IMG/VR virus record: IMGVR_UViG_3300025309_000012
DNA from: an uncultured virus (IMG/VR IMGVR_UViG_3300025309_000012)
Taxonomy: Duplodnaviria; Heunggongvirae; Uroviricota; Caudoviricetes
Direction: 5' to 3' (one strand)
Length of the DNA: 64,000 nt
The notes beneath the pieces are model-generated. The model had not been told where the DNA came from, did not search any database, and worked only from the letters and a program-made list of their open reading frames with translations. A program made the position numbers and the translations under genes. This document shows positions 26,090 through 51,040 of this stretch, piece by piece. Each line of letters opens with the position of its first letter. Position 1 is the stretch's first letter.

Positions 26090-26102
26090 AATTTCTCCCG
26101 AA

Positions 26103-26894: not shown

Positions 26895-27711
26895 TAATAC
26901 CAGCCATTAATTTTAGAAGAAAATTGTCAAAGGTTTCAATATTTTCTTGTGTTACAATATTTTCGTATTCACTAGTTTTTTCAGCACCAGCAAACCAATG
27001 AATACCAACCGTATTCTCAAATAAATTAGAGTGCTTGCCAAAAATTAATTCAATTTGTCTCCAGTCAAATGGATAGACAGTTGTAAATGGAATATTATCA
27101 ATTTTACATTCATGTTTTTCTGAAAAATCTTCAGTATTTTTTTTGTTATATTTAAAAAAAGAAGTAAATAAATCTCTCCCAATTGTTTGATATTGCAAAT
27201 TATCTATTTTATTTATAGAGTTTACACACATATCAAACAATTGTTTAAAAAATTTATTATCCCCAGCACTTGCCAAAAATCCAATATTATGACAATTATA
27301 GTGATAACAAATTAGAGTATCTTTATTTTCAAATTTATTAAAAATTTTATCTACAGAAGAAGTATAAAAAATATCAAAGTCTGACCACAAGCCCCCAACA
27401 GATGAAAGCAAACTCAATCTTAATAAATCCGACTTATGAACTTCAGATATTTCTTTGGCTAATTTAAAATCAGTTTCAACCAAAGACACATTTTTTATAT
27501 TAGCCAAATCATCAAAATAGTCCTTCCCTACAGGGCAATATTTTTTTTGTTCAAACCCATCCCATTTAATTTCTTTATTAATATTTTTAGGATAGTAAAC
27601 AAAAATTTGCCAATCCGGGTTTAATTTAGAAAAAGAAACAACTGTCAAATATTTCATATAAGACAATGGTTTATTTTTACCCCAATATAGATGAATTTTC
27701 TTAGGTATCAT
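26887..27711 (-). CDS. GT32/DXD-family glycosyltransferase
   Basis: MIPKKIHLYW, KSDLLRL..L...GGLWSDFD, GIHW. Confidence 0.8.
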   Translation of the reverse strand: MIPKKIHLYWGKNKPLSYMKYLTVVSFSKLNPDWQIFVYYPKNINKEIKWDGFEQKKYCPVGKDYFDDLANIKNVSLVETDFKLAKEISEVHKSDLLRLSLLSSVGGLWSDFDIFYTSSVDKIFNKFENKDTLICYHYNCHNIGFLASAGDNKFFKQLFDMCVNSINKIDNLQYQTIGRDLFTSFFKYNKKNTEDFSEKHECKIDNIPFTTVYPFDWRQIELIFGKHSNLFENTVGIHWFAGAEKTSEYENIVTQENIETFDNFLLKLMAGINE

Positions 27712-28256
27712 TTATTCTCCCAAATCGCATACGTATTTTTGTCAATATTATCTGTAGATGTTTTAAACCCAAATTTTTTAAATACTCTATCTGGTATAAA
27801 ACATTTGTGCTCTTGATATTTGTTTATTCCAGTGCCTTTCCAATCTGAATCTGGAGAGTTCTCCATCCATTCAAATATATTATTTTTCTGACCCAACCAA
27901 TTGATGTTAATATTGTCAAAGAAATGAGATGGTGTATAAATAATAACCTTTTTTCTAGCCATTCTTTTCATCTTTTTTATAAGATTATAAGCTTCTTTAA
28001 AATCAAGATGCTCTAATATATCTAAGGCAATTACAACATCAATTGTGTTTATTCCAAATTCATATTTTGTTATATCGGCACAAATAGCATTTACGCCCAG
28101 CAACTTAATTTTATTTATATAAGGCTCATATATATCAAATCCAACAAAAGATTTACACCTTAACCCCATAACCTCTTGCAATACCCCGCATCCAAGGCTT
28201 GAAACAGAATCGTTTCCAGTTATTTCTTTTTGAACTAAATCACCTAGCCAATTCAT
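27708..28256 (-). CDS. class I SAM-dependent methyltransferase
   Basis: SLGCG, GFDI, ADI, DVVIALDILEHL, YTP. Confidence 0.75.
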   Translation of the reverse strand: MNWLGDLVQKEITGNDSVSSLGCGVLQEVMGLRCKSFVGFDIYEPYINKIKLLGVNAICADITKYEFGINTIDVVIALDILEHLDFKEAYNLIKKMKRMARKKVIIYTPSHFFDNININWLGQKNNIFEWMENSPDSDWKGTGINKYQEHKCFIPDRVFKKFGFKTSTDNIDKNTYAIWENK

Positions 28257-28264
28257 AGTAAGCC

Positions 28265-29326
28265 TTAAATAAAATTAATATGTTTTGGTTTATCTTTGAT
28301 ACAATAATTTATGAATTCATTTTTAGCTTTATAAAGACAAGGATTTTTACATCTCAGATCAGGATTATGAGATTTAAACATATTGATCTTGTCATCACTC
28401 ATCCACAAATCTTTGAACGATTGATTTTTTATAGAACCAATCTTCCCTTTTTTATTATACGCAAGTGTACAGCAAGTATAGACATTATAATCAGCCCCTA
28501 CATAAGCAAGTAAATCTTTTGTAGGACAAAAATTATAGTCTTGAACTCCCTCAAACATGTCTTTCATTCTATCATTAAAAAGATTAAAAACAGTAAAATT
28601 ATCATCAGATAGTTCTTGAGCTTTTTTAGCCAACTCAAAAGAATCTTCATATATGCCATCAAAATAAGAATAGCCATCTGGGGTAAAAGCAGCAGATATT
28701 CTAAAATTATCTACTCCAATTTCTTTAAATAATTTTGCTGCATCAAATATTTCTTTGTAATTATATTTGTTAACAACAAATCCTGCTCCTATAACACTAT
28801 CTTTTTTGTATTTAACTAAATTTTTAATATTTTCAATAGTCCTGAAAAACATCTTTTTATTTACTTTTCTAAAAGATGAATATGTTTCTGGTGTAGCACA
28901 ATCAACTGATATTCTAACCCAAGCTGAATCGCTTAAAATCTTACACAATTCATCATCTAACGCCATGCCATTTGAAACTAGAGCTAGTTCTAGTTTTCTA
29001 TCTAATATATCTCTGAATATATTTTTAATTTTTGGGTGGACAAGAGGCTCTCCTCCTCCGGTTATTTGAATAGCTCTTACCCCCATATCAACACAAGAAT
29101 CTAACGTTTCAACAATTTTTTCATAAGAAAGTAAGTCTTTATCATTAAATATTTCATTTGATTTATTCCCCTTCAAGCGATACGCACATGTTAAACAAGA
29201 ATTGTTACACTTATTTGACGGAATAATCTGGACTTGCAATGGATTTGGTTGTTCTCCATCTTTAAACTGAATTAATTTGTCAAAGCTATGAATAATTTTG
29301 TATGGTGAATATTCCTCTTTAATCAT
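28265..29326 (-). CDS. radical SAM enzyme with SPASM/twitch-like C-terminus
   Basis: CNNSCLTC, TGGGEP, RISVD, C...VYTCC...IGSI..QSF...W...C...C. Confidence 0.9.
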   Translation of the reverse strand: MIKEEYSPYKIIHSFDKLIQFKDGEQPNPLQVQIIPSNKCNNSCLTCAYRLKGNKSNEIFNDKDLLSYEKIVETLDSCVDMGVRAIQITGGGEPLVHPKIKNIFRDILDRKLELALVSNGMALDDELCKILSDSAWVRISVDCATPETYSSFRKVNKKMFFRTIENIKNLVKYKKDSVIGAGFVVNKYNYKEIFDAAKLFKEIGVDNFRISAAFTPDGYSYFDGIYEDSFELAKKAQELSDDNFTVFNLFNDRMKDMFEGVQDYNFCPTKDLLAYVGADYNVYTCCTLAYNKKGKIGSIKNQSFKDLWMSDDKINMFKSHNPDLRCKNPCLYKAKNEFINYCIKDKPKHINFI

Positions 29327-29952
29327 TTTTCTCCCCTATTCCAAATTGCCGAAAACTCTTTATCTACTTCAACTGTCCCCAAATGTTTATTTGTACAACT
29401 CGTATCTATAAATATTTTATAGCCAGCTTGTTTAACTAAATTACAAAAATAAACGTCTTCACCAATATCGAATTGAATGTTAGGATCTGGATTTTTCATA
29501 AAAGAAAAATAAGGCTTTTTAATTTTGTTGAAAACATCCATATTAACTAATAAACATGCTGCGCCAACACTATCTACTTCAATTAACTCATTCTCTGGGA
29601 CATTATCTATCGTTTTATAATTGTTTATCATACCATTAAAAGCACAGACTGAATATGGTGTAGTCCTCATAAAAGACAACCCAGATACAATAGGTAAGTT
29701 GTGTGAAAGTAACTTAATTATTGTATCTGGGTTATGTCGATGGTCTACATCAAGAAAAAGTATGTGCGTACAGTTGTATTTTTGTGCGGCGTCAACTAAT
29801 TGATTTCTCATTGATGCCAGTCCTTGATAACCACCAGCTCTAAAAAATACGTGATTATCAGGCTTGCGCATAGCCATGAACGATTCAAAAAATTCAACTG
29901 GTACTGTATTGTGTGTTAATGGCACTCCTATAGCTAATTTTACGTCTTTCAT
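29323..29952 (-). CDS. GT-A fold glycosyltransferase (GT2-like), paralog 2
   Basis: RNQLV, THILFLDVD, GAACLL, GEDVYFC, KHLG. Confidence 0.8.
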   Translation of the reverse strand: MKDVKLAIGVPLTHNTVPVEFFESFMAMRKPDNHVFFRAGGYQGLASMRNQLVDAAQKYNCTHILFLDVDHRHNPDTIIKLLSHNLPIVSGLSFMRTTPYSVCAFNGMINNYKTIDNVPENELIEVDSVGAACLLVNMDVFNKIKKPYFSFMKNPDPNIQFDIGEDVYFCNLVKQAGYKIFIDTSCTNKHLGTVEVDKEFSAIWNRGEK

Positions 29953-32716: not shown

Positions 32717-33109
32717 TTATGGCGAAACTGAAATCGTGACTTTCTTTTCAGGGTTAACGTAGAAATTGATTGGCTTAATGATACGGTCATGAGCCACCCA
32801 TTTTACCTCAGTTGAATAATCACTTTCGTAACCATAGACATCATAAGCTGTGGCGGCGAAATAATAGGTTGTTCCAACAACAAGATCCCCTACTGAGCCC
32901 TCAACATGACCATCCACCATTGTGCCCATTTTCTGGTCAACATCTAAAGTGTATTTTTTTGACGCTGTGCCATAGTAGATCTTATACCCGGCAAGGCTGG
33001 TCTCTGCATTTGGAGACCAAGAGAACCTTGCCTCGGCAGCAAAAGCATAACTGGATAAGAATAAAACAAAAATAGTCGCAAAACAAATTTTCTTTAACAT
33101 AATTTTCAC
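32717..33109 (-). CDS. fibronectin type III domain protein with N-terminal signal peptide
   Basis: FATIFVLFLSSYAFA; W..N....LAGYKIYYG...TTYYFAATAYD..G.ES.YS.E. Confidence 0.8.
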   Translation of the reverse strand: MKIMLKKICFATIFVLFLSSYAFAAEARFSWSPNAETSLAGYKIYYGTASKKYTLDVDQKMGTMVDGHVEGSVGDLVVGTTYYFAATAYDVYGYESDYSTEVKWVAHDRIIKPINFYVNPEKKVTISVSP

Positions 33110-33717
33110 CTTGGATTAAATCTCTCCCAATATGTTTGATCTATTTCAATTGTACCTAAATGTTTGTTATCACAACCGGTATCACAATATATTTTATATC
33201 CAGCCTGTTTAGCCTTTAAACAAAATGCAAAATCTTCACTTACAACACCGTCGCCAAACCTATAATTCATTTCGAACCAAGGATAATTAATTTCTTTAAA
33301 AACACTGACATCAACCAATAATGAAGCAGCTCCAATAGCATCTACTTCAATTAATTCATTTTTATTCCATTGTATTATATTCTTGAATTTATCACCATCT
33401 TGTTCGAATATAATTGGGTCATATGGATAAGAACGCCTAAAAGATAAACCAGATACAATATCTTTATCATGTGACAATAATTTAAGGATGGTATCGGAAT
33501 GATGTCTATGATCTGTATCAAGGAACAATATATGGCTAAATGTCCCATCTTTAAGAACGGCATGAATTATTGAATTTCGTTGATCGTCTACTCTTCCCCT
33601 ATTCCCAATTATTACACTATGTTGGGGTTTCTTCAACTCTATCCATGATTCAAAAAATTTGGTCGATAAAAAATCCCAGTTGCAAGGAAGACCAATGGCG
33701 ATGTTAATATTACCCAT
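33106..33717 (-). CDS. GT-A fold glycosyltransferase (GT2-like), paralog 3
   Basis: SHILFLDTD, GAASLL, PWF, SEDFAFC, KHLG. Confidence 0.8.
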   Translation of the reverse strand: MGNINIAIGLPCNWDFLSTKFFESWIELKKPQHSVIIGNRGRVDDQRNSIIHAVLKDGTFSHILFLDTDHRHHSDTILKLLSHDKDIVSGLSFRRSYPYDPIIFEQDGDKFKNIIQWNKNELIEVDAIGAASLLVDVSVFKEINYPWFEMNYRFGDGVVSEDFAFCLKAKQAGYKIYCDTGCDNKHLGTIEIDQTYWERFNPR

Positions 33718-34445
33718 TACAAACACCAGCTAATTGCTAGTTCCGGGAAGTTTAATTTATGAGGCAATCCTTCTCTTATAATAAATTTATCTCTTGCTAA
33801 TGCTGCATCTTTAGCAGTTTTAAATGTTGTTTTGTTAAATACTGTCTTCCCATCATTTCTTACAATTGCAGAAAAAGATTTTCTCTCCGGTTTATAAGAC
33901 ACCCCACAATATCCAGAAGTGTTATTCGACTGTAATAATCTTTTATTAAATCCATTCTCTCTTATAGTTATAAATCTACAATTCCAAGGAGCATAAGGAC
34001 CATCATTATCGATTCGATCTAATTGAAGACCTTCTTCCCATCCATTATTTAAACACCAATCATTAAACACGGGGAATTCAAACACCCATTCACTACATAC
34101 ATAAATTCCACGCCCACCATAACTGTCATACGATCCATTATTCACATTTGAACATCTACTATTGATATGTTTCCAAAGTGAATAAATTTTATTCCTTGAT
34201 TTTCTTCCACCCATCCCATGAATTGTGGATCTCTCTACTAATTTCTCTATTTTAAGACAGCCGCAAGATTGTGATTTCCCACTCCTCAAAACTTGTAAAT
34301 TAACTAATTTAATTGTCTCTTTATCACATAAACATTTTACAACGACTAGCCTACCTTGCCTCTGACTATATGGCAAATCAGCATAAATTACAACCCATCT
34401 TCCATAAACGCATCCCAAAACATATTCTTTTACATTATTACTCAT
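33717..34445 (-). CDS. HNH homing endonuclease with AP2-like C-terminus
   Basis: SQSCGC, YGGRGI.VC.EW, LDRIDNDG.Y.P.NCRF, NTSGY.GV; ATG after AGGAGG. Confidence 0.85.
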   Translation of the reverse strand: MSNNVKEYVLGCVYGRWVVIYADLPYSQRQGRLVVVKCLCDKETIKLVNLQVLRSGKSQSCGCLKIEKLVERSTIHGMGGRKSRNKIYSLWKHINSRCSNVNNGSYDSYGGRGIYVCSEWVFEFPVFNDWCLNNGWEEGLQLDRIDNDGPYAPWNCRFITIRENGFNKRLLQSNNTSGYCGVSYKPERKSFSAIVRNDGKTVFNKTTFKTAKDAALARDKFIIREGLPHKLNFPELAISWCL

Positions 34446-37164: not shown

Positions 37165-39630
37165 TTAATCCTCAAATTCAATTATACCCTTAGCTTTTTT
37201 AATTCTATCTTCCACTAAATCAGAAAGATCGATCTCATCAAATGTCTTTTTAACTTTATCAACAAATATATCTTTTATTTGAATAGCATCAAAGTCAAAT
37301 TCGACTTCTGATTTTTTAACCGGGATTTCTATTTCTATAAAATCAATGCTTTTTGTCTCTATATTATTGCCAATATCTTTTTTCTTATCTACGTTCTTTA
37401 AATCTTGAATTAAGCATCTTTGCTCTTTCATTTGTTCTAAAGACTGAATTAGAGCTTCTTCAATACTAATTCCATCATCTTCAGCAATCATTTTAGCAAA
37501 TTCTACTAATTCTTTTAAATGAGCGCCAGAATATCCATCTGTTAATTTAGCAAACTCAGTTATAATATCCTTATCGGCATCTTTTATAAAAAACTTTAAT
37601 AGTTTTATTCTGTTATCTTCATCTGGAAGTGAAAAATTTATAATATGATGAAACCTACCAGGCCTATCAATCAATGCGTCTGGAATATCTTCTGGGAAAT
37701 TTGAAGTTAAAATAGTTAGAACACCTTTATTTTCCCTTATCCCATCCATTTCAGTTTTTAACAAATCAACAGTATAGCCACTAAGCCATGTATCAATATC
37801 TTCTAAAAAGAAAACACTAGGCGCAAGAGTTCTAGCCATTTCAAAGCCAATGCCTAAAGCACTAGCAGCTCCCCAGCCAAAATCTTTAGATGAAGCCCAG
37901 ATAAAAGTCGTATCTGCTTTATTCATCAAAATCTTCCCAGTTAATGTTTTGCCCGTACCTGGGGAACCAATAAACATCATTCCACGACTAGGAGACTTTG
38001 TAGATAATTTTTCAATATTCTTCTTAATTTTATCCTTTGCTTCATCATTTGGGAAAATGACATCATCCCATCCTATTTCCTTAACCTCAAGAAATTCTCC
38101 ACCAATAGAAAATTTTTCACCTTTAAGATAATTATTCTCATCAACCCATTTTATAGCATCTCTGACAAACGATTTATTTAATTCAATATTTTTATTAGAA
38201 GTAAAAATATCAATACTTAAACCACCCCAATTTTTATAAATTTGAAAAACAAACCTATCACCATCATTTGATTTATAAAATTGAGTTCCAGTTACTAAAA
38301 ACTCTTCTTCTAATTTTGAATTCAATTTCACAACAGAATGCTGCAATGGGATTTCAGATCCATTACCATAAAAATTTCTTTGATCAAGGAGTTCATGCTT
38401 AGACAAAACATTCTTAAATGCAGAAAGAAAATTGCCTTTCATAGCATTCGGGATAAAAAAATCTGTAGTGAAAATATCTTTTATTTTACACCCCAAATAT
38501 TTCGTAAAAATTTTATATTCAAATCCTGCCGGTTCTGTCCTTACTTGAGTAATATCAAAATCATTGACATATTCTTTTTTTATTTTTTCTAAATCAACAT
38601 TTTTTACTTTTAAAGAATTGAAAAATTTAATTCTTGCATCTATTACATCTGTTTCCTTTTTAATCTCTACTTCCTGTTTCTCTTTATTAAAATCATCCAA
38701 TTCTTTTTCAATGATTATGTCTATGTCTATCTCTGATTCTGATTCTTTAACATCCTCTAATTCCTGATCTTTCTCAATTAAAGTTTCATCAATATCCACA
38801 TTATCGGAAATTAACTCCCCTTCCGGTTCATTAATAACGACAGTTTTTTCAATTATTTCTTTATCGGAATCTTTAGTTACGTCTTCATTATTTTCTTTAC
38901 TGCTAATAAATTCTATATCAACATACCAATTGCCCATTTTTTTGATATCTTCTTTTTCCTTACTTATGAAGTCATCACCAGCCAATAATCCAAAAACTTC
39001 ATCAGGGATATTTATTTCTTTAACTATTTCTTCTTTTTTCTTTTCTAAATCAACAAACCCAACAATTTTTGCTTTCTCATTATCTTGGTCAATTTCATTT
39101 ACAAAATCAACAATAGATTTTGTAGTAATCTCTCCATTAGCCACTCTTTCTACTAATGCTGAGTAATGGTCCGGCACTACAACAGCTGATATTTCCAAAA
39201 GTTCAACTTTTTTAAAAACCCTATCAGGGATTTTGCCGCCTCTAGTATATTTTTTTATTTCAACTTCATTCATATCATCTTTATATAAAATTTCTTTAGG
39301 AATAAAGCCTACAGAAAATGCATTCATAACTCCGCTAGAGTATAACTTGTAAAAAGTTTCTCCTTCTTCAGTTTCAGCAAACTTAACCTTGAATTTTAAT
39401 CCCTGACCAGGATAGACTTTAGTCCAAGCTGCCCTACCAATAGGAGGTCTATCATATTTATGGAAAGCGGGGATGACAGGATTTTCTATAAAATTTTCTA
39501 ATTCCCAAGCATTATCATCAATTAAATCTCCACTTCTATCTATAGAATCTGATTTATTCGCATAAGCAACTACAGATTTTTCTACCTCATTCACTTCTTT
39601 TTGAAAAATATTTTTAAATAACTTTTCCAT
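37165..39630 (-). CDS. HK97-type prohead protease fused to an AAA+ ATPase
   Basis: DRSGD, NPVI..H...PIG, FSVGF, LLEIS.V; then GSPGTGKT, FLEDID, TSN, DRPGRF, GYSGAHL. Confidence 0.85.
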   Translation of the reverse strand: MEKLFKNIFQKEVNEVEKSVVAYANKSDSIDRSGDLIDDNAWELENFIENPVIPAFHKYDRPPIGRAAWTKVYPGQGLKFKVKFAETEEGETFYKLYSSGVMNAFSVGFIPKEILYKDDMNEVEIKKYTRGGKIPDRVFKKVELLEISAVVVPDHYSALVERVANGEITTKSIVDFVNEIDQDNEKAKIVGFVDLEKKKEEIVKEINIPDEVFGLLAGDDFISKEKEDIKKMGNWYVDIEFISSKENNEDVTKDSDKEIIEKTVVINEPEGELISDNVDIDETLIEKDQELEDVKESESEIDIDIIIEKELDDFNKEKQEVEIKKETDVIDARIKFFNSLKVKNVDLEKIKKEYVNDFDITQVRTEPAGFEYKIFTKYLGCKIKDIFTTDFFIPNAMKGNFLSAFKNVLSKHELLDQRNFYGNGSEIPLQHSVVKLNSKLEEEFLVTGTQFYKSNDGDRFVFQIYKNWGGLSIDIFTSNKNIELNKSFVRDAIKWVDENNYLKGEKFSIGGEFLEVKEIGWDDVIFPNDEAKDKIKKNIEKLSTKSPSRGMMFIGSPGTGKTLTGKILMNKADTTFIWASSKDFGWGAASALGIGFEMARTLAPSVFFLEDIDTWLSGYTVDLLKTEMDGIRENKGVLTILTSNFPEDIPDALIDRPGRFHHIINFSLPDEDNRIKLLKFFIKDADKDIITEFAKLTDGYSGAHLKELVEFAKMIAEDDGISIEEALIQSLEQMKEQRCLIQDLKNVDKKKDIGNNIETKSIDFIEIEIPVKKSEVEFDFDAIQIKDIFVDKVKKTFDEIDLSDLVEDRIKKAKGIIEFED

Positions 39631-40686: not shown

Positions 40687-41463
40687 TTAATCATGATATT
40701 CCTTTTTTAATTTTTCCAATGAATAGGTTTGGGTGTCAAATCTCCCTTCTTTAAATGAATCGAGTAAAACCAAGCCTTTCCAATATTCAGTAATTCTGCC
40801 GTGTACATAATCTTCATGTTTTTCAAAAAAACAACCTACACTTAATATTTGTTGTAAATCATCTTGCCCATGCCTTTTAAAACCTTCATACTCCATACTG
40901 TGAACATGAGCAAAGACACAACTCGTAAACATTAATTGGCTAACTTTTTTTGTAATATTCACCCCACAAACTTCTTTTGTTTTATTAAATGGAATATGTG
41001 TAAAATTTATTTTATTTATATTTAAATATTCTCTGTAAGGAATAAATTTTATATTCCTTTCTTTTAATTTTAGATCTTTTTCTATACTTACTAGACCTTC
41101 AAAAGTTGGATCATATTCTAAATATCTGTTGAGACGATTTCCATGATTACCGTTAAGATAATAAACATTTGGTCTATATATTTTTAATTTTTGCAATCTT
41201 TGCTTTTCTTGTAATTCTAAAAGTTCATAAAATATAATATCTAAAGCTTCGTTCCCTTTATCTATTTCTTTTTTATATCTTTTACCTTCCATTCTTTGTC
41301 GTTTATCTTTATCAAAAAATGACAAACAACTCATTGTTAAAAAATCACCCATAAAAATAATAACATCTGGTTTTTTATCTATAATAAATTTACTTAACAA
41401 CTTAAACCTACTTAAATCATCAAGTTCATCTATATGACAATCACCTATTGGCAATATTAACAA
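40687..41463 (-). CDS. calcineurin-like metallophosphoesterase
   Basis: GDCH, MGDF, GNH, AHVH. Confidence 0.8.
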   Translation of the reverse strand: MLILPIGDCHIDELDDLSRFKLLSKFIIDKKPDVIIFMGDFLTMSCLSFFDKDKRQRMEGKRYKKEIDKGNEALDIIFYELLELQEKQRLQKLKIYRPNVYYLNGNHGNRLNRYLEYDPTFEGLVSIEKDLKLKERNIKFIPYREYLNINKINFTHIPFNKTKEVCGVNITKKVSQLMFTSCVFAHVHSMEYEGFKRHGQDDLQQILSVGCFFEKHEDYVHGRITEYWKGLVLLDSFKEGRFDTQTYSLEKLKKEYHD

Positions 41464-41534
41464 TTATTATCCTCTAATTAAATTATTAAAATAAAATCAG
41501 TTGCAAAAATGCGAATGCTATTGTTGCTGTCACC

Positions 41535-43361
41535 TTATTTAAACCTTACCGAACCTGCGCCTTCTTTAGACCTTACCGAACCAACAGACTCAGTTGATGC
41601 CACAATGCTGAAACTCGCTTCCGTGCTTGTTGCGTTTGCGTTGCCAGAACCATCAATACACCTGATGTAATAAGTGTATGCCGCGTTGCAATCCAGGTTT
41701 ACGAGGCTTGTGGTGTGTGTAGTTCCCCCGCCACCTGAGAAAGTAAAATCCATATCGGCGTAGGCTTCATCGGTAAGGCTTCCTTTGCAGGTGGCAGACT
41801 CATCTGTTGTCGCGCCAAGCACTTTGGTTGTTGGGTCCGAGGGGCAGGATAGTTCTCCGGTAAGCGTAACGCCAGAGATAACCGGCGGGTCAAGGTGTGT
41901 GATGGTGATAACCGGGCTCGCAACGATGGCTGCAGATCCGGTGAGGATTGAGGCCGGGATTGTTGCTGTTATCGTCTCATCTGCTGAGACGTCATAAGCA
42001 TCTACTTTTACAATTAGAGTTATCTGCGTATCACTGTTACGGATGCAGTCAGCGTACGTCCAGTTTGCTTCATCATCCCAACTGCCTGCCCCAGACAATG
42101 AGCCGTTGAAACCAGCCAGTAATGCGGTAGTGGCTGCGTTATCAGCACAAGCCGTCGCAATAAAGGTGTCGCCATCCAACGTGATGATTATTGTCTGGTC
42201 ATCTCCGGCAAGCTCTGTTTCAGTTACTCCGCCTGTTACGGCTGTGCCTGTGAGTGTTGCGTTTACCCCTAACATGGCAAAATATGTAGGCCCTATACGA
42301 CTGCCATCAATAATAAAATCATCGACATAGTAGGCCATATCCAAGGCTTCCGAAATTTCTCTGATAAGAAACGAATGGTTGCCACCAAAGAAAAACTTAT
42401 TATAATTGTAGTCCTGGCCTGCCTCAACTACAACTCCGTCTGTTTTTGTAAATATTTTTGTAACATTCCCTTCAGCATCGTACAACCACATTTCAGAGAC
42501 AGCATCGGCATTCCCTGCCGTTCCTGTGGTTTGATGGAATTCTATCCCAAACCACTGCTCATTGCCGATAGCTGTCCCCAAAAACGGCTTAATGCTATAC
42601 GCAGTGCCTCCACCGTCTACGGCATCATATGCCTCGTACAGCAGGTCATTATTCCAGTCTGCATCATAAGCCGAATCGAGACGGAGGCCTGGTTTGAAAA
42701 ATAACTCATACCCGTAGGTTGCTCCTGTTTTTATGTCCGGCAAATAATGTGATTGCCCATAAACCTGGCCTTGCCCATCTGCCTGAGCGTATTCGTCATA
42801 TATTGAACTGGCTGAGTATGCCCCAGCCACAAGAGTGTTAAATTTGTAATAACTCCAATACCCGGTGAAATTTCCGCTTTCATCCCTGTAAGGGAAATGG
42901 TTGTAGGGCATCTTCACCATATAGAAAATATAAATGTCATCATAACCAGAATCTATGGTCCCTGATGTTGCATACCCATCACCAAGCGTGAAGTACAAGC
43001 CGAACCTGGAAGGTCCTTTGTGGTCAACCGTGCCTTGTTGGGATAGATCAAGCCGTAACGACTTACCTGTGCCCTGCCAAACATTTGCTGCCCCATGATT
43101 TGCAATCCAATCATAGGTGCTATCGGTGCTTGACTGGTAATAATACATGTTCCAGATTGAAGCTGAATTATCTGCTGATTTAGTTGGCAAATTATTAAAA
43201 TAATACCCAACTCCTGTTGATGTTCCACTCCAGTCATTAAGCTGGTCGAAAGTCTCTACAATATCAAAACCGGCACCTTCAAGATCTGACTGCCAATCAG
43301 CCACAGCCTGGACCGGCAAGGCCAATATGATGAAAAGCAAAAACTTAATAGCCACTTGCAT
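41535..43361 (-). CDS. secreted acidic protein with a lectin/lyase-like beta-sandwich and Ig-like C-terminus
   Basis: signal peptide KFLLFIILALPVQAVA; WFGIEFH, YYVDDFII; probable start at 43361. Confidence 0.55.
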   Translation of the reverse strand: MQVAIKFLLFIILALPVQAVADWQSDLEGAGFDIVETFDQLNDWSGTSTGVGYYFNNLPTKSADNSASIWNMYYYQSSTDSTYDWIANHGAANVWQGTGKSLRLDLSQQGTVDHKGPSRFGLYFTLGDGYATSGTIDSGYDDIYIFYMVKMPYNHFPYRDESGNFTGYWSYYKFNTLVAGAYSASSIYDEYAQADGQGQVYGQSHYLPDIKTGATYGYELFFKPGLRLDSAYDADWNNDLLYEAYDAVDGGGTAYSIKPFLGTAIGNEQWFGIEFHQTTGTAGNADAVSEMWLYDAEGNVTKIFTKTDGVVVEAGQDYNYNKFFFGGNHSFLIREISEALDMAYYVDDFIIDGSRIGPTYFAMLGVNATLTGTAVTGGVTETELAGDDQTIIITLDGDTFIATACADNAATTALLAGFNGSLSGAGSWDDEANWTYADCIRNSDTQITLIVKVDAYDVSADETITATIPASILTGSAAIVASPVITITHLDPPVISGVTLTGELSCPSDPTTKVLGATTDESATCKGSLTDEAYADMDFTFSGGGGTTHTTSLVNLDCNAAYTYYIRCIDGSGNANATSTEASFSIVASTESVGSVRSKEGAGSVRFK

Positions 43362-44115
43362 TATACACCTTCCCGTTGTCAATATATCCATCAGAGGTTA
43401 AAACTGTAGCGCTAGCCCCGCCCCATGCAAACACGGTGTTAGAACCAGTAGACGCGGCAGGGTCGTTGTCTGCTTCCGCAGTAACACAGTTGGTTGTGCC
43501 GTCAGCGTCACAAGTTTTTACATACATGTCATTTCCTGCCGCCGTCTCTTCTATCCACCCAGCTTCAAAATAAAACCACTCGCCTTCCGCACGGCCACTG
43601 CTGGCAGGGATGTTTACTGTATCCGCTGTACCGCCCCCGGTATGTGTGAGCAAAAGAAGGATATCAGCGGCATCACCTAGCGATGCAAAAGACAAAAATA
43701 CCCGGTTTGATGTATCCAAAACGTTGTACCATATGTACTGCGCATCAGCATACATCCCAGTGCCAACATAACACCTGCCAGAAATTTTCCCGTCTGAAAC
43801 AAGATCAGTTGCAGTTGTAAACTCGGCCCTGGAGCTTGCCCCATCACCATGGATTGCTGATGCGCCGTCATAGAATTGATCGGTCGTTCTTGCTGCGCCA
43901 CTCTGATAAGTGGGAGATGTATCTTCCGTCGAGCACCCGGCAGGAGTTCCGGTTGTTACGTCATCCGTCTCCATGTGCCAGGAGTGGATCAGTGTCCCGG
44001 TACAGGAGTCTCCGGCAGTGGCAGTCTCATTTACATTGTTTTCCCCGCCCGGACCCCAGGCAAAGGCCTGAAACGGTGCGAGAAGAAGTGCAAGAAATAA
44101 AAACCGCTTTATCAT
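43345..44115 (-). CDS. secreted LamG/ConA-like protein
   Basis: signal peptide MIKRFLFLALLLAPFQAFA; GEWFYF..W, GYIDN.KVYN. Confidence 0.55.
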   Translation of the reverse strand: MIKRFLFLALLLAPFQAFAWGPGGENNVNETATAGDSCTGTLIHSWHMETDDVTTGTPAGCSTEDTSPTYQSGAARTTDQFYDGASAIHGDGASSRAEFTTATDLVSDGKISGRCYVGTGMYADAQYIWYNVLDTSNRVFLSFASLGDAADILLLLTHTGGGTADTVNIPASSGRAEGEWFYFEAGWIEETAAGNDMYVKTCDADGTTNCVTAEADNDPAASTGSNTVFAWGGASATVLTSDGYIDNGKVYNASGY

Positions 44116-45131
44116 GAAGCACCCCCATCAACCCAGGTTCCGCTGCGGCCATTGGTATTGGCCTTCGTGGTTGACCGGTTGTGGATGCAGATAAAATTCC
44201 CAGCTGCTCCGGGGCTGTCAAGTTCGTACCCAGCTCCGGCAAGAGCGGCACCATCCAGGTAAATTGTCATGCCGTCAGATTGAGGGTCAATCTTCACAAC
44301 ATTGGCACCGTCAGAATAGACACACCCTGAATAGTCAGCGATCGCCGGCCAGAGTATTGTTGTGGCCGCATTGATGTACCACCACGATCCAGACTGAAGA
44401 GGACCGGGGGCAAGCTTCCATACGTCCCCATCGTCCCAGTTATTATCGGTTCCACCTGTCAAAGTACCGACCAAAGTCGTGCCTGCATTATCTATAACCG
44501 GCGCGACTGACCCATCGGTTACGTTGTAAACCGTCATGCCTATGCAGCCGTCAACCGGCAGTGACTCGCTGGAATCGGTCATAAAAGCAGCATCGGCACC
44601 ACCATCATGCACGCCCTCGGTGGTGGTCAAAGAAAAGCTTTTCGTATGGCCGTTGATTGTTCCGCTGCTTTCGACGACCATGTCATTAGAAAAAGAGACT
44701 GCGACATTTGAAAGATCCAGTGTTGCAAGTGCCTCAATCCAGCCCTGCACCTTCGTCGCCATGTAAGTTGCAAAGTCAGTCAGGGCAACCTGCACCATCG
44801 TGCCGTTGTCGTTTACTACGGCCCGGTCAGCATCGACAAGCGTGGTGGCTGTTGCGGCTGTATCGCCATCAGATGTGGCTGTAAGCTCGGTTGCGGACGG
44901 TGTCATGTTGGTTATCCCAGACACGGTTAATGCAAACGGCGCATATACATCCTCGCCGATCAATGCCTGAATCTCTGCCGAGGTGTCCACGGTTGGATCT
45001 TGCTCTGTTGCCGCGTTCGTGCCGCCCTTATTGGCGTCCTGATAGCCGTTGTTGTCAGCGTCAAGCTCAACCGCTAAGGCTTTCCAGGGAATCAGCAGAA
45101 CAAGTGCCGCTATCAATAGAATTTTATTCAT
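44112..45131 (-). CDS. secreted Thr/Asp-rich fibre-like protein
   Basis: signal peptide MNKILLIAALVLLIPWKALA; VYNVTDGS, LTGGTDNNWDDGD. Confidence 0.55.
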   Translation of the reverse strand: MNKILLIAALVLLIPWKALAVELDADNNGYQDANKGGTNAATEQDPTVDTSAEIQALIGEDVYAPFALTVSGITNMTPSATELTATSDGDTAATATTLVDADRAVVNDNGTMVQVALTDFATYMATKVQGWIEALATLDLSNVAVSFSNDMVVESSGTINGHTKSFSLTTTEGVHDGGADAAFMTDSSESLPVDGCIGMTVYNVTDGSVAPVIDNAGTTLVGTLTGGTDNNWDDGDVWKLAPGPLQSGSWWYINAATTILWPAIADYSGCVYSDGANVVKIDPQSDGMTIYLDGAALAGAGYELDSPGAAGNFICIHNRSTTKANTNGRSGTWVDGGAS

Positions 45132-45142
45132 TTGTCATCTCC

Positions 45143-46780
45143 TTACCATGTAGCGGTTTCACCGCCGAAAGTTGCTGATTCACCACCAAAAGTTACTAGC
45201 TCGATATGCAATCTACCCCCACCCAACGAATAACTGTCAGGTGTCCCCAGAAACCACAGGGGCGGCGGCATTGTCATGCCTTTGCACAACTCGTATGCGC
45301 CGATTGGCTCGCCAGACCCGCAATAGATATTGTCGTGGGCGGTGCCGGCGTCAAAGAGCGATTTGAGGCGGGGACGGCCTTGAGTGTCGAGGAGGGGATT
45401 GTCGGTTAAGTCGGTGGCGTCGAGCGTTATGTCATTGTCAGGTGCATTGTAAACAAGGTTGTCGTGCTCCACAGCGACAGATCCCGCGCTTGTTTCAAAC
45501 CCTTTGCTTGTCGGGCTGTCACAGAGGTTATTAATCCACGTAGTGGTATTGCCTATGTTGTCACCGTCAGCTTGACTAAAGCAAACATTTGGGGAAATAA
45601 CAGTGTTGCCAATCCATCGATTCCCACTACTCTCGTTGCTAGCGTTCCTCAACCCCATGCCGCTTGAACCACTTACGAGATTATGCTCTACAAGGTTTCC
45701 AGTTCCTTTGAAAATGCTTATGCCCCGCCCCCCGCAAGCCGCGTTGGTGTTTTTAATAATATTTCTGGCGACATAATTGCCTGTTGACAACAGTGTGTCA
45801 TCGGTGTTCGACCAATCCAAGATAATGCCACATCCGTCGCAACTTGCCGTGTCAACACTATCAATCCTGTTATCGATTACGTCAACCTCGTTAATCCAAT
45901 GGAGCTGAAGGCAATTTACCATTGGGTAGTCCGAGTCACCACATTGTCCTACATGATTATCCTCTATTGTGCTGGCTAAAGTTGCACCGTTGATGCCACC
46001 AGGAAGACCCATAAACGGTCCCCGTGTGTGGTCAACATCATTCCTCGCAACAGTCAATCCTTCGACTCTATGCCCTCCGCTCCAGACATCTGCGTCAGCG
46101 GTGCCGAATATGAAATTTTTGAGGTAGTCGCCAATGTTATCGGTAATGGAGATATTATACGGGTGTTTCGCATTTGCTCCCGCCTGCGCCATCCTGATCC
46201 CTTCCATTGTCCCATTGCTGCGAAAATCATTGTGGTGAAAATTTATGTTGTAGGAATCAGCGGTTGACGTGTAGATATCAAGGCATGTCTGGGATGTGTC
46301 CGAATCGCAAATAATATTCTTCACTTCAACATCATGTTGCCCGAAAAAGTACACTATGCGCCCGAGAGCGGCGCCGCCCGCAAACGTCAGAGTGCCGAGG
46401 CCGTCAATTTGATAGCACCCTCTACCAGCTACCCCAAAAAGAAATCCTTGCGTTGCGGAGTAAGACAAAACCGGTGCATCCCCAAAAGCTGGCGCAAAAT
46501 AATACAGCGCATCCGATGTGCCGGTGGCCCTGACGATAAGCTGCCCGTCAATGGGGCCAGCATCGTCGCAAAAGTAAATTGTATCACCCGGGGTCATATC
46601 CGCGGCGTCTGTTCCCCAGTTATCTTGCGCGGAAAACCAAGACTCATCATGGGCAGTAGCACAACTTGTACCTGAATCATCGCCTTGAGTTGCCCCAGCA
46701 ATGTAGACGCCCTTCGCCCCCGCCACGGACGGCATGGCCAACATGAGGGACAGAAGCAGGGCTAGAATTTTCTTGATCAT
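45143..46780 (-). CDS. secreted right-handed parallel beta-helix protein
   Basis: signal peptide MIKKILALLLSLMLAMPSVAGA; D.G.SC..A, PGDTIY, Asn-ladder repeats. Confidence 0.65.
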   Translation of the reverse strand: MIKKILALLLSLMLAMPSVAGAKGVYIAGATQGDDSGTSCATAHDESWFSAQDNWGTDAADMTPGDTIYFCDDAGPIDGQLIVRATGTSDALYYFAPAFGDAPVLSYSATQGFLFGVAGRGCYQIDGLGTLTFAGGAALGRIVYFFGQHDVEVKNIICDSDTSQTCLDIYTSTADSYNINFHHNDFRSNGTMEGIRMAQAGANAKHPYNISITDNIGDYLKNFIFGTADADVWSGGHRVEGLTVARNDVDHTRGPFMGLPGGINGATLASTIEDNHVGQCGDSDYPMVNCLQLHWINEVDVIDNRIDSVDTASCDGCGIILDWSNTDDTLLSTGNYVARNIIKNTNAACGGRGISIFKGTGNLVEHNLVSGSSGMGLRNASNESSGNRWIGNTVISPNVCFSQADGDNIGNTTTWINNLCDSPTSKGFETSAGSVAVEHDNLVYNAPDNDITLDATDLTDNPLLDTQGRPRLKSLFDAGTAHDNIYCGSGEPIGAYELCKGMTMPPPLWFLGTPDSYSLGGGRLHIELVTFGGESATFGGETATW

Positions 46781-47106
46781 TTTACCCTCGTTAACGTGAA
46801 CTCAAATCTTTCAATCCCGCCTTTGTACAAAATACCCCTGAATGTGCCGTCATCCTGCTCTTCAACAACATCGATAATGTCACAGAAAAATTCATGGTTT
46901 TTCGGGTGGTTATAGTCAAGGCAGTATTTTTCCCCGTTCGTGCTCACGTAGAAATGCGCCCCCTCAATCCCCACGGCCCGGTTGAATCCCTCGCCGTCCT
47001 TGATGATCTTGTGGTCGCCAAGCGGGTTGAAAATGCTTGCCCAGCCGTGACAGGTCACTGCCCATTCGCCGTCAAGATTCATAATATTATCAACCCAAAA
47101 GTTCAT
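46777..47106 (-). CDS. hypothetical protein, first gene of the GC-rich cassette
   Basis: 109 aa ORF overlapping the next start. Confidence 0.5.
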   Translation of the reverse strand: MNFWVDNIMNLDGEWAVTCHGWASIFNPLGDHKIIKDGEGFNRAVGIEGAHFYVSTNGEKYCLDYNHPKNHEFFCDIIDVVEEQDDGTFRGILYKGGIERFEFTLTRVK

Positions 47107-47109
47107 ATA

Positions 47110-47577
47110 TTAAAGCAAAGTAATAATAATTGTCCCAGTAGCACTAACACCACTATTTGACGCAATATCAAGTTGTAATGTAGTTGGGCTTCCAATTGGA
47201 TAATTAGCGTTATTACTGTCAATCATTGAATATTTTTCAATAGTATCACTCGTATCTATATTAGATAAAGCAGTCCCAAATACATCTACTCCAGCATCAT
47301 CTTTTAATGTTATATCAGCAACACCAGTCGTTACAGGAGTAGAGCCGGGTATATGCCTTATCTTTAAAATAAATCCATAATATCTACTTACAGAAATCCG
47401 TGTCGCAGTAGATAAAGACCCATCAGCAGCAGTTTCATACTCTATTGTTAGTGTTCTTAACCCAGACATTGTACTTTTTGATACAGAAAATGTTACAAGT
47501 TCTGCACAATAAACATTAATTGGGACAAATAAAAACAAAAACAAAAAAACCAATCTTTTAACCATCTTATCCTCCAA
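47110..47577 (-). CDS. putative secreted/virion protein
   Basis: KRLVFLFLFLFVPINVYC hydrophobic leader; DITLKDDAGVDV. Confidence 0.5.
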   Translation of the reverse strand: MEDKMVKRLVFLFLFLFVPINVYCAELVTFSVSKSTMSGLRTLTIEYETAADGSLSTATRISVSRYYGFILKIRHIPGSTPVTTGVADITLKDDAGVDVFGTALSNIDTSDTIEKYSMIDSNNANYPIGSPTTLQLDIASNSGVSATGTIIITLL

Positions 47578-47583
47578 CTATTG

Positions 47584-48960
47584 TTAATTTTGCAGAACAG
47601 CTAATTTTTTAGGATTATCAATTATATTTCCAGCGCCAGTACCTTGAGCTATATTAGATAAAACGCCATCCATAGTTGTCATGTTGACCGCAATTAATGG
47701 TTCATCAAATCTTTTATCAAATTTTTCCTTACCCAATCCTGTTCTAACTTCATTAATTGATTCAATTCCTGTTTGAACATGTTTAATTCTTTCATTTAAC
47801 AATTCTTCTCTTGAGTCAGGAACGCAATTATCATATGCTAGAAACAATTTTTCATCATATCGCCAAATCAATTTTTCATTTAACTTTTCTTCAATTCTTC
47901 TCAATCTCGGTTGGATTGTAAAACTCATATATTGATATATAGCAGCGTCTACATTCGCTCTGTTCGCTTCTTTACTATACATACCTAGTGCTTGTCCAAA
48001 AGCGTTTAAAATCAACTCTCTTATCTTTTCTCTGCCACCAAGATAAGACATTTCTTTAGGCGAAGTTCCAACTGGTTTAAATTTTAAACCACTATCAAGT
48101 AATGGCATTTTCCCCGCATTTTTAGGGCCAGTAAACGCTTGTTTAATTTCAGCCTTTAATCTTTCAAATTCATGATCTCCTAGTTCACTATCTGTTTCAA
48201 ATGTCCCTGACAATGTTCCTTGATTTTTGAACATTGCTTCTTCATATTCATTTATAGAATGGTTTAATGAATATTCTTCAGTAATAGAAGAAAAAGGAGG
48301 GAACCCATAATAAACAGATTTTGGATTTGGCATTTTAAAATGAATCACAGCTTTTTCTTTTAAATCTATAGACTGTGTTCCTTTTTGATATTGATAACCA
48401 GAAATAAAACTTTTACTATCTGGAACAACTTTACAATTTTGTGGCGGAATAATCCAAATTTCTTTTGGGATACCCATTCTGTCTTCAAGAATATGCCAGA
48501 ATGTATTTCCAGTAAGTTCCTGATACAACTGCGTCATTTGCATCAGGTCAAAATTATTCATGAAATTGTTTACATTTTTTTTCAAATCAAGAAATGGATG
48601 ATCAAGAACTTCTTCAAATTCGCTAGCTTTTCTAACAGAAGTTATATTTGATAGAAATGGATTTTCCCTAATAAAAGCGTCTTGAGATTTTGAAATATTT
48701 CTCGTAGGAAAATTTTTTATTTTTTGGCCTTTCTTATTTTTTGCCACATAAAGTCTAAGAGGAATATTTGCTACACTATCAGCATTTTTAGAACTTGCAA
48801 TATATACCCAAGACTTATAAGAATTCACCATCGCATTAAAATCATCTTCTGGGTACAACTCTCTGCCATATTGCCATGGGTAAAGCCATGGCAATGACGT
48901 TCTTTTTCTTCCAACTCTAGCAGCTCTCATTTCAATTTCATATTTAAAAGGGTCTATCAT
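47584..48960 (-). CDS. portal protein (HK97 family)
   Basis: WVY, ELTGN.FW, VIHFK.PNP...YYG, NAGK..LL..GL.F, TIQP.L..IE. Confidence 0.92.
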   Translation of the reverse strand: MIDPFKYEIEMRAARVGRKRTSLPWLYPWQYGRELYPEDDFNAMVNSYKSWVYIASSKNADSVANIPLRLYVAKNKKGQKIKNFPTRNISKSQDAFIRENPFLSNITSVRKASEFEEVLDHPFLDLKKNVNNFMNNFDLMQMTQLYQELTGNTFWHILEDRMGIPKEIWIIPPQNCKVVPDSKSFISGYQYQKGTQSIDLKEKAVIHFKMPNPKSVYYGFPPFSSITEEYSLNHSINEYEEAMFKNQGTLSGTFETDSELGDHEFERLKAEIKQAFTGPKNAGKMPLLDSGLKFKPVGTSPKEMSYLGGREKIRELILNAFGQALGMYSKEANRANVDAAIYQYMSFTIQPRLRRIEEKLNEKLIWRYDEKLFLAYDNCVPDSREELLNERIKHVQTGIESINEVRTGLGKEKFDKRFDEPLIAVNMTTMDGVLSNIAQGTGAGNIIDNPKKLAVLQN

Positions 48961-49291
48961 TATTTATTTCCTTGAGAAGCTTCAAGATAAACTTTATACC
49001 TATTTTTAAAAAAGTCTTCATGAAAATATTTTTCAATAAACTCTTTTTTTTCTGTATCAAAATATTCTGTAATAATATACAATTTATTTTCTTCTGGTTC
49101 TAATTCTCTTAAAATAAAATCTGGTGATGAGGAATAGTCTTTAATATAAAATTCTATCCCATCATGAATTAATAAAAGACCTTTTGGAAATATTTCTTCT
49201 AATTTTGCAGAAAAAAAATAATAATTTTGAGCCAAATTTTTTGTTGCAAATATATAAAAAATATTGTAAAGTAGTTTAAAAATATTTTTTA

Positions 49292-51040
49292 TCATATTAC
49301 TCTTATATGAGGAATCGCAGGCTCAAAGAAACATTGCATTAAAGAAGCAAACTTGTCTGGGCTTCTCCCAATCTTCTTTTTAATTGTTTTCTTATCACTT
49401 ACTTTAATTTTACCACTACTTTGGTCTTCGTAATATTCAAACGCGAGCATCTCTTCCCTTAAATCATTATCATCCGGAATCATAGCTGAAGGATCTTTCT
49501 TAAGCCAGTCAGCTATGGTCCAGGCCAACTCATCTCTTATTAAATGAAACTTACCCAATTCACATTTTTTTTGACTTGGTGAACTTACATAAACTTTTCT
49601 GGCATTAATATGGCATCTTGCCATTTCTTTATGACAAACAGGGCACTTATAAATACTTTCATCAAGATAAGTTGTTTTATAATGAGAGCATTCATTATTT
49701 TCACACCTCCAATACCACATTCTACCAACTCTCGGAGGTATTGCAGCCCCAATCCCGTCAGCTTCTACATTAGCCTGATCTGCATCCAAACTTACATAAA
49801 TTTTACTAAGTCTATCTGATGATTTATCTAAATCAACACCCTTCCAACTTTCAAATCCATCTATATAATTACCATATCTTTTAGCAACACAACAATTATC
49901 TCCACCCTCATCAGCAACGTCCATTCCTAGTAATGGCTTAATCCCTTTTATTACATCCTTCCCGTATGTTGCCCGATAAAGTTTCCATCTACTTACAGCA
50001 TTATCTATATCCACCATACTTATTAGAGAACTTTCTGTACAAGATGGGTACTCCCCTAAAACCTTATAGGAAAAAGCAGGATTTGTTACAACCCTCCATC
50101 CACCCTTTAAAGGTGGATAGAATTCATTATTTCCTGAAGGTTTTTCACCAGTAACCCCAATTAAAAATTCAGGAACTTCAAAACAAGATTTATCAACCTC
50201 TTCATCATCCCTTAACTCTCTTGACCAGCTATTAATCCTTTCAACAACTTTATCTCTACTTACTGCTCCTGGAATTAAATTTTTGCCACTCACTACATTT
50301 GGGTGATTAAATGCAGACATTGTGATTACATTTGCTTTGCCTTTAGTCAATTCATAGACATACCCAGATTGACGTTTTGGGTTATACATATTTAATTGCC
50401 TACTGCCATCACCTGAAAGACACCCATCCTCGCCTTTAAAAACCTCATCTGGGATAGCATCACTTTCATCATTTTCATAAAAAAGATAATCTGCATGCTG
50501 CCCACTAAATTTAGCTTCTCTTTCCTCAGCAGAACCAGTGGATGGAATTGTTTTTCCAGTTATAAAATGTTTTCCACTACTTTCTCCGTAATCATCTTCT
50601 TTGCTATTTAAATTAATGTCATCTGTTATTTTTAAATTTAAAATTCTATCACTTTTAAATAATTTTCTATTTTTAACAACAATCTCTACTATCTCACTCC
50701 AAAGTTTTTCCTTTAAATTATTTTCAGGAGGAGCAGCAACGGCAATTGTTTGTGATTTTGGGAAACAGCGATAATGCCAAATAGCAAGAGCTGCGGCACA
50801 AAAGGTTTTTCCAGTTCCGGTCGCTGATTTAACAACTGTGACTTTATTGTCTCTAACAGATTCAGCAATTTTAATTAAATCATCAGGAATTATTTTTATT
50901 TTTAAAATTTCTCTAAAAAAAACAACTGGATCTTTTTGATATTTCGTATAATCTATATCATCCAGCAAGACCGATTTTATTTCATCTTCATTAAAAAGAT
51001 TAGCAAGCAAATCTAAAGCTTTTTCATCTATGCCCATCAT
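49292..51040 (-). CDS. terL: terminase large subunit
   Basis: SATGTGKT, NDE, YNP, GMDVA..GGD, EADGIGA, GRSPD. Confidence 0.9.
   Translation of the reverse strand: MMGIDEKALDLLANLFNEDEIKSVLLDDIDYTKYQKDPVVFFREILKIKIIPDDLIKIAESVRDNKVTVVKSATGTGKTFCAAALAIWHYRCFPKSQTIAVAAPPENNLKEKLWSEIVEIVVKNRKLFKSDRILNLKITDDINLNSKEDDYGESSGKHFITGKTIPSTGSAEEREAKFSGQHADYLFYENDESDAIPDEVFKGEDGCLSGDGSRQLNMYNPKRQSGYVYELTKGKANVITMSAFNHPNVVSGKNLIPGAVSRDKVVERINSWSRELRDDEEVDKSCFEVPEFLIGVTGEKPSGNNEFYPPLKGGWRVVTNPAFSYKVLGEYPSCTESSLISMVDIDNAVSRWKLYRATYGKDVIKGIKPLLGMDVADEGGDNCCVAKRYGNYIDGFESWKGVDLDKSSDRLSKIYVSLDADQANVEADGIGAAIPPRVGRMWYWRCENNECSHYKTTYLDESIYKCPVCHKEMARCHINARKVYVSSPSQKKCELGKFHLIRDELAWTIADWLKKDPSAMIPDDNDLREEMLAFEYYEDQSSGKIKVSDKKTIKKKIGRSPDKFASLMQCFFEPAIPHIRVI

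Follow-up and report, generated by a model that had tools for sequence, protein, structure and literature searches.

A GC-rich cassette with Sec-type leaders in the head operon of an uncultured tailed phage, a putative exported glycan-binding and glycan-cutting appendage

Tailed phages are generally considered to complete their particles inside the cytoplasm, and tailspikes such as P22 gp9 and the CBA120 TSPs are leaderless, fold in the cytoplasm and are anchored through their N-termini. Here we analyzed a 64,000-nt stretch of DNA from an uncultured groundwater virus of the Caudoviricetes (IMG/VR record IMGVR_UViG_3300025309_000012; the window), in which a cassette behind the portal gene encodes jelly-roll, beta-helix, fibre-like, LamG-like and lyase-like proteins with predicted Sec-type export leaders. 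Leaders were called throughout with a hydrophobicity and charge heuristic. We lean slightly towards the view that the products form an exported glycan-binding and glycan-cutting appendage that would join the virion after export. Like the tailspike/depolymerase modules, the cassette has bodies that are swapped against a constant anchor and is mobile between phages; it differs in that the constant part of its beta-helix is C-terminal and in that a leader precedes each protein (except for a 109-aa product described below). Its 151-aa protein is modelled as a small single jelly-roll, the fold of the cement proteins of KHP30/KHP40, Pam1 and GP4, but the fold match to these is middling, at 5-11% identity, and the protein carries a leader and varies in gene position (portal, capsid, tail and internal-protein regions).

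Among the closest described cases is Cellulophaga phage phi10:1, for which the source paper is reportedly Holmfeldt 2013. Its GenBank record (KC821618) annotates gp091-gp094 as structural by tandem mass spectrometry (MS/MS) and is silent on leaders; by our calls, these four proteins and the pectate lyase gp095 all have Sec-type leaders. Both phages are tailed, with an HK97-type capsid and adjacent late leader-bearing genes. The phi10:1 cluster differs from the cassette in its tail-end location, in mature ends that often start with Gln and in being native rather than GC-foreign, and its sequences point to an analogous rather than a homologous system. Phage use of Sec is otherwise described for lambda Lom, which has a leader and lies among tail genes (PMC12309495), and for leader-bearing lysins (fOg44 Lys44) and T4 RI (PMC6116005), but these are single membrane, regulatory or lysis proteins and form no multi-gene module of fibres and enzymes. 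A literature search that covered few subscription papers gave no account of virion fibres exported by Sec. The features of the locus are as follows.

47110..47565, minus strand: 151-aa Sec-leader protein with a single jelly-roll fold; ATG start with GGAGG upstream (155 aa if a TTG start is used)
46777..47106, minus strand: 109-aa leaderless gene, first of the GC-rich block
45143..46780, minus strand: 545-aa protein with a Sec leader and 14 Cys; homology indicates a right-handed beta-helix
45146..45421, minus strand: constant C-terminal anchor, about 90 aa, of the 545-aa beta-helix
44112..45131, minus strand: 339-aa Sec-leader fibre-like mosaic
43345..44115, minus strand: 256-aa Sec-leader LamG/ConA-like protein, likely fibre tip
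41535..43361, minus strand: 608-aa Sec-leader polysaccharide-lyase-like protein (618 aa from an upstream ATG)
41496..41533, minus strand: probable remnant of the start of a holin-like gene (28/41 nt matching over the aligned stretch)
47584..48960, minus strand: portal gene, upstream flank (PF04860, E 3e-51)
40687..41463, minus strand: metallophosphoesterase, downstream flank, low GC (phrog_221)
32717..33109, minus strand: small FN3-like Sec-leader gene before the head-tail adaptor (fn3 E 7.8e-4; PHROG minor tail protein E 1.5e-5)

The minus-strand gene order is terminase, portal, the 151-, 109-, 545-, 339-, 256- and 608-aa genes, metallophosphoesterase, an HNH-like gene, a prohead protease-AAA fusion and the HK97-type capsid. 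The initial annotation had described a GC-rich run of consecutive leader-bearing open reading frames (ORFs) between portal and protease. The location held, with the low-GC metallophosphoesterase and HNH-like genes separating the block from the protease. The GC-rich part is 41535-47106, five genes inside the HK97-type head operon, with a GC content of 0.497 vs 0.325 elsewhere and abrupt steps at both edges; the highest value among equal-sized windows elsewhere was 0.367, and the GC of the third codon positions (GC3) of the block genes was 0.45-0.61. The 151-aa gene lies outside this block and is native-like in composition (GC 0.33, GC3 0.18). The leaderless 109-aa gene interrupts the run of five leader genes. 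All five block frames are intact, coupled and co-oriented in the late operon. A moron or lysogenic-conversion cassette would bring its own promoter and terminator into a temperate phage; no terminator-like site was found at either block junction, and promoter-like matches were weak only. None of the six cassette proteins matched Pfam, PHROG or NCBIfam. The 113,349-nt linear virus record that contains the window (G000, 81% complete) differs from it at 29 positions, none of them inside the cassette.

The four large ORFs and the gene at 47110 were confirmed to start with Sec-type leaders, as the initial annotation had reported. The leaders of the 151-, 545-, 339-, 256- and 608-aa proteins combine a basic n-region with an uncharged hydrophobic core (mean Kyte-Doolittle value 2.7-3.6) and small-residue cleavage sites (AGA, ALA, AFA, AVA and VYC), and neither a lipobox nor a twin-Arg motif was seen by eye in any of the five; they read as canonical Sec-type leaders under the heuristic. 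The same heuristic was positive in 4 of 104 other G000 ORFs of at least 100 aa, with one clear leader (32717-33109). The latter FN3-like gene, a homolog of which adjoins a leader-bearing jelly-roll gene in locus L251, is probably part of the exported set. As the calls are heuristic only, the N-terminal stretches might instead be cytoplasmic pro-peptides or membrane tethers of proteins that assemble in the ordinary way. We consider this very unlikely, given the canonical n/h/c anatomy in five genes against the background of 4/104, the unrelated leader sequences that precede a mature start equal to the start of leaderless forms, and an acidic double-disulfide repeat in a sister cassette (E 3.4e-7, below the curated cut-off).

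The 608-aa protein was modelled by AlphaFold 2 (AF2) with a mean predicted local distance difference test (pLDDT) score of 86, as a beta-jelly-roll N-domain, two further beta-rich domains and a short repeated C-terminal tail. In structure comparison (VIA) the N-domain matched the glucuronan lyase 2zzj (Z 16.8, root-mean-square deviation 3.2 over 225 residues), 5gmt of polysaccharide lyase family 14 (PL14, Z 15.5) and vAL-1 (Z 13.8), and Foldseek returned 5gmt at E 2.7e-8. The model thus indicates a beta-jelly-roll lyase fold nearest to glucuronan and alginate lyases, and lyase activity may be supposed. PL20, PL14 and PL36 lyases have the same fold (Z 13.7-16.8) but only 8-11% identity. K173, R119, Y201, E274 and Y294 are invariant across 26 homologs; the Pfam PL14 match was weak (E 0.0096, in 1 of 26 family members), and the lyase alignment gave no PDB sequence hit. 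CBA120 TSP2 appeared as a weak row in the fold search, and rows for neurotoxin binding domains, which ranked below the lyases, were set aside as a generic lectin jelly-roll.

The 545-aa protein itself has no Pfam match, and its alignment gave no useful PDB sequence hit, while its homolog P0238 (54% identity over 91%) carries PF13229. Seven of its 14 hits match the C-terminal part only: P0243-P0249 cover just 12-26% of the query at 50-85% identity. This anchor of about 90 aa is common to beta-helix proteins with different bodies and is 82% identical in L337, a donor-type phage contig of 48% GC with a GH108 endolysin, a 109-aa homolog and a different leader-bearing beta-helix body. A constant C-terminal anchor joined to an exchangeable, putatively glycan-acting body is what receptor-binding proteins and depolymerases would lead one to expect. 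Such modules are leaderless and fold in the cytoplasm, unlike the block, in which four of five genes have Sec-type leaders. The 109-aa protein has a 68% identical counterpart in L337, encoded by the gene that follows the GH108 endolysin; the top Atlas hit of the 109-aa protein was an unnamed viral cluster (0.97), with DUF4334/GXWXG at only 0.87.

The 339-aa protein is a mosaic of an N-module, a tail-fibre shaft repeat (about residues 72-130), a virion-type mid domain (168-243) and a C-terminal domain ending in GGAS. Among non-redundant 5'-complete ORFs in the fetched loci, all 57 other proteins with the shaft repeat were leaderless (5 incomplete ones set aside). The mid domain alone occurred in 87 leaderless and 12 leader-bearing proteins (13 set aside), and the mid and C-terminal domains together in 19 leader-bearing proteins and 3 called leaderless, 2 of which are leader-bearing by eye (10 set aside). 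A scan of 12 leaderless carriers gave matches to tail or structural PHROGs for five, only to families of unknown function for four and none for three; leaderless carriers include tail fibres, podovirus tail proteins (phrog_376, E 3e-152) and a virion structural protein, and others bear Collar or S74 domains. A leader was called on the gene after the GGAS domain in 25 of 30 loci; a next gene was absent from 6 loci, and the window's own leader escaped the heuristic. The mature ends there often consist of a short hydrophobic peptide plus glycines. The 256-aa protein, with LamG-like Atlas structure rows (TM score 0.58-0.72, mostly viral clusters), is likely the fibre tip from its position after the GGAS domain. 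Searches (tblastn) of 50,697 cultured-phage records gave no match to the 545-, 339- or mature 151-aa proteins; the only hits, all weak, were those of a family member to MetMV and of the shaft repeat to a pelagiphage tail fibre (E 0.1).

The 151-aa protein was modelled as a single jelly-roll (AF2 pLDDT 87), and its VIA matches included GP4 (8h89_J, Z 7.8), Pam1 (7eel_H, Z 7.4) and the KHP40 cement protein (Z 6.9), so that capsid chains, one of them a cement protein, made up 3 of the top 8. The predicted fold is cement-like and not diagnostic. Its family comprised 83 hits (3 of them spurious repeat proteins), of which 67 were called leader-bearing, and the short leaderless forms begin at the mature start of the exported form. 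In other phages, modules of this kind generally begin with the jelly-roll gene, which often follows capsid or portal genes. The gene after it was leader-bearing in 13 of 19 leader-bearing jelly-roll loci vs 5 of 36 leaderless ones (p 1.4e-4, ignoring kinship; 64 non-redundant loci, 55 with a next gene; L271 mis-called leaderless). A quick tree of 72 rows showed 9 changes of leader label, at least 3 of them forced by strong branches once a mislabel of L279 was allowed for. The syntenic phages L248 and L272 have jelly-rolls that are 87.5% identical, with leaders on one set of genes and none on the other; the beta-helix begins with M-ATYYV in one phage and with leader-ATYYV in its partner, and the C-terminus is common to both. 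Whether a single module can pass from a cytoplasmic to an exported edition, or back, by gain or loss of leaders on all its genes is about an even call. The L248 locus lies on a contig of a Smithella metagenome-assembled genome (MAG) with two integrase genes. Two temperate phage genomes (L344-L346, G001 contig C120) stand back to back on one Smithella MAG contig with two integrase genes. A leaderless member of the 151-aa family was also observed directly before the head-tail adaptor in L009 (19896-20264), a relative of the window's phage.

The recent acquisition proposed in the initial annotation was supported by the GC contrast and by comparison with phage relatives. Five relatives have 60-63% portal identity; four can be read all the way from portal to protease and lack the block, and the fifth is cut off too soon to tell. 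Cassette-free L009 carries a 73% homolog of the metallophosphoesterase in the same interval. In L005 and L089 (portal 93%) the same slot contains counterparts of the 151-, 109- and 545-aa genes, while the 3' half is swapped for other leader-bearing genes, for a 446-aa fibre, a CBM96/DNRLRE protein and a Pel9A-like beta-helix, followed by a holin-like gene (phrog_9990 in L005; weakly holin_lambda, E 0.038). The first codons of a holin-like gene of this type probably survive in the window. Nucleotide identity to L005 in the 5' half is patchy, at 64-100% vs 95-98% in the long flanks, and in three runs the summed depth is raised over the anchor region and the 109-aa gene, the parts that other contigs chiefly match. 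We infer that higher-GC phages of a local pool have exchanged DNA with this locus repeatedly, and the block appears to derive from phages of about 48-50% GC. The source is thus foreign, as proposed, but a phage donor is more probable than a bacterial chromosome, and the block represents one allele at a slot whose contents are exchanged. Bacterial-chromosome origin was unsupported: the GGAS alignment matched 4 of 401 sampled G001-phylum genomes, in the mid domain only, and the lyase-domain alignment matched 2 of 401 G001-phylum genomes, partially, and 0 of 401 G002-phylum genomes, these being samples and not proof of absence. Unrelated phages of sipho- and podovirus-like type have homologous modules within their structural operons, and sequence comparison suggests that the module of jelly-roll, beta-helix with anchor, fibre, LamG tip and polysaccharide-lyase-like enzyme is widespread. 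That the block is recently captured cargo, inactive or decaying here, would fit its unameliorated GC and the truncated holin-like remnant at the 3' end; it is nevertheless very unlikely in view of the five intact, coupled frames, and the different intact 3' set in the L005 slot and the patchily re-exchanged 5' half speak for repeated selection.

Chimeric assembly was rejected, since the junctions are spanned in contigs of other runs and in IMG/VR contigs. Four runs that carry no mark as a possible source have bridging contigs, at the right junction in X7, X8 and X11 and at the left in X7, X8 and X15. Four IMG/VR contigs have an identical portal, two spanning both junctions and two the left one; both junctions lie inside IMG/VR contigs L003 and L004, and the 608-aa protein is present on 27 contigs. 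Run X15 (2.6 million letters, one coded organism) contains a 17,036-nt contig identical over window 45354-49500, which, if it comes from a single-cell genome, may be a pointer to the host.

Taken as an appendage that joins the virion after export, the cassette would work as follows. The comparisons show a foreign accessory module, putatively for host recognition, inserted behind a jelly-roll gene that was already resident in the head operon and whose product is predicted to be exported; the cassette would be read late in infection along with the head genes. On leader anatomy and established Sec biology, Sec would carry the products across the inner membrane and, once the leaders are removed, they would fold in the periplasm or beyond it, some with disulfides. 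Assembly would run through constant joints, suggested by conservation alone: the beta-helix C-terminal anchor, the fibre N-module, and the GGAS domain with the short N-terminal peptide of the next protein. The appendage would dock on finished particles at or after lysis, possibly via the cement-like jelly-roll, and would bind and cut acidic surface polysaccharide on the next host; swapping variable bodies between constant joints would retune its glycan specificity. Virion attachment is favored because cassette parts are virion parts elsewhere (shaft repeat, mid domain), because the same genes exist with and without leaders (L248/L272) and leaders come as a set, because the modules sit in structural operons of unrelated phages, because a constant anchor with a variable body is the receptor-binding protein pattern, and because of the phi10:1 precedent and the capsid chains among the jelly-roll fold matches. 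For the exported glycan-binding or degrading complex of the initial annotation, export and folds are supported, and joints between the parts are suggested by conservation. Of the three roles offered there, the best fit is to decorations that mature outside the cytoplasm and join virions, since leaderless forms of the same parts are found in virion proteins. A superinfection shield of the lysogen type is less probable, because the genes are co-oriented and coupled in a late operon and no integrase (PF00589 or PF07508) was matched in the linear, 81%-complete G000.

It is possible, though clearly less probable, that the exported proteins stay off the virion and act, free or on the cell surface, as a complex stripping or masking the capsule or matrix of the infected cell, so as to ease progeny release, block competing phages or pre-digest neighbouring cells. 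The leaders are real, lyase-like and beta-helix folds are predicted, and the modules lie close to lysis genes in L337, L092, L179 and L005. Free depolymerase activity in plaques is known (PMC6116005). Homologous domains also occur in dockerin- or T9SS (type IX secretion system)-tailed proteins; P0122 (73% identical to the 608-aa N-domain) and P0242 (36% to the 545-aa body) have the same dockerin-like C-terminal tail, so both enzyme bodies are probably also used in cellular secreted proteins. However, an off-virion role leaves unexplained why non-enzymatic shaft, virion-domain and cement-like parts are exported as a set, and why leaderless twins exist with the same mature N-terminus and C-terminal anchor.

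Several points weigh against a virion appendage. The MS data of phi10:1, the precedent for attachment, could include co-purifying proteins; gp091-gp095 showed no tblastn similarity to the cassette at E 0.01. The phage already has leaderless tail-end proteins of 926 and 666 aa, and the block is accessory, because relatives at 60-63% portal identity do without it. The jelly-roll matches are middling (Z <8) and tied with unrelated beta-sandwiches, and a Foldseek search of the PDB with this fold gave nothing at E 0.001. Cys counts are equal in leader-bearing and leaderless jelly-rolls, which leaves a disulfide rationale for jelly-roll export unsupported, and the jelly-roll loci are not phylogenetically independent. 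The N-terminal peptide of the window's 256-aa tip is shorter than the family pattern. The lyase-like domain has homologs that carry dockerin, FN3 or T9SS tails, one of them labelled Desulfobacteraceae, and therefore also serves in cell-secreted proteins.

Some further features of the genome were observed. The prohead protease (Peptidase_S78) is fused to a C-terminal AAA ATPase (821 aa, window 37165-39630, minus strand); homologs have 844-882 aa in L006, L007 and L010 and only 468 aa in L009. The head-tail region contains a glycosyltransferase-like cluster with a methyltransferase and a radical SAM/SPASM gene (25433-29952 and 33106-33726, minus strand), possibly for virion glycosylation, and L090 has a gene homologous to this cluster near its exported module. 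A suspected link between the N-terminus of the native 666-aa protein and P0007 was not found. Just past the window, among early genes, G000 encodes a 150-aa ORF with a lipoprotein-type leader (106038-106490, plus strand). The G000 ends (1-1219 and the last 1.5 kb) carry duplicated genes at 89-92% identity; a terminal repeat was rejected, as the duplications are inexact.

On present sequence evidence, the cassette appears to be a phage receptor-binding/depolymerase module set apart by its export leaders and by the leader switch. It is in our view evenly balanced whether a second, extracytoplasmic assembly line operates in many unrelated tailed phages, with Sec export of fibre, tip, beta-helix, lyase and a cement-like adaptor, docking at lysis, leader switching and moves across GC classes via constant joints. 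If so, phages could recruit bacterial glycan enzymes and lectins that are secreted and disulfide-bonded, use them as host-range parts with no need for re-adaptation, and would keep their own assembly line unexposed to glycan enzymes. Leader-bearing phage genes should then not be dismissed as host-takeover genes, and the L248/L272 pair together with the cultured phi10:1 would make the question directly testable.

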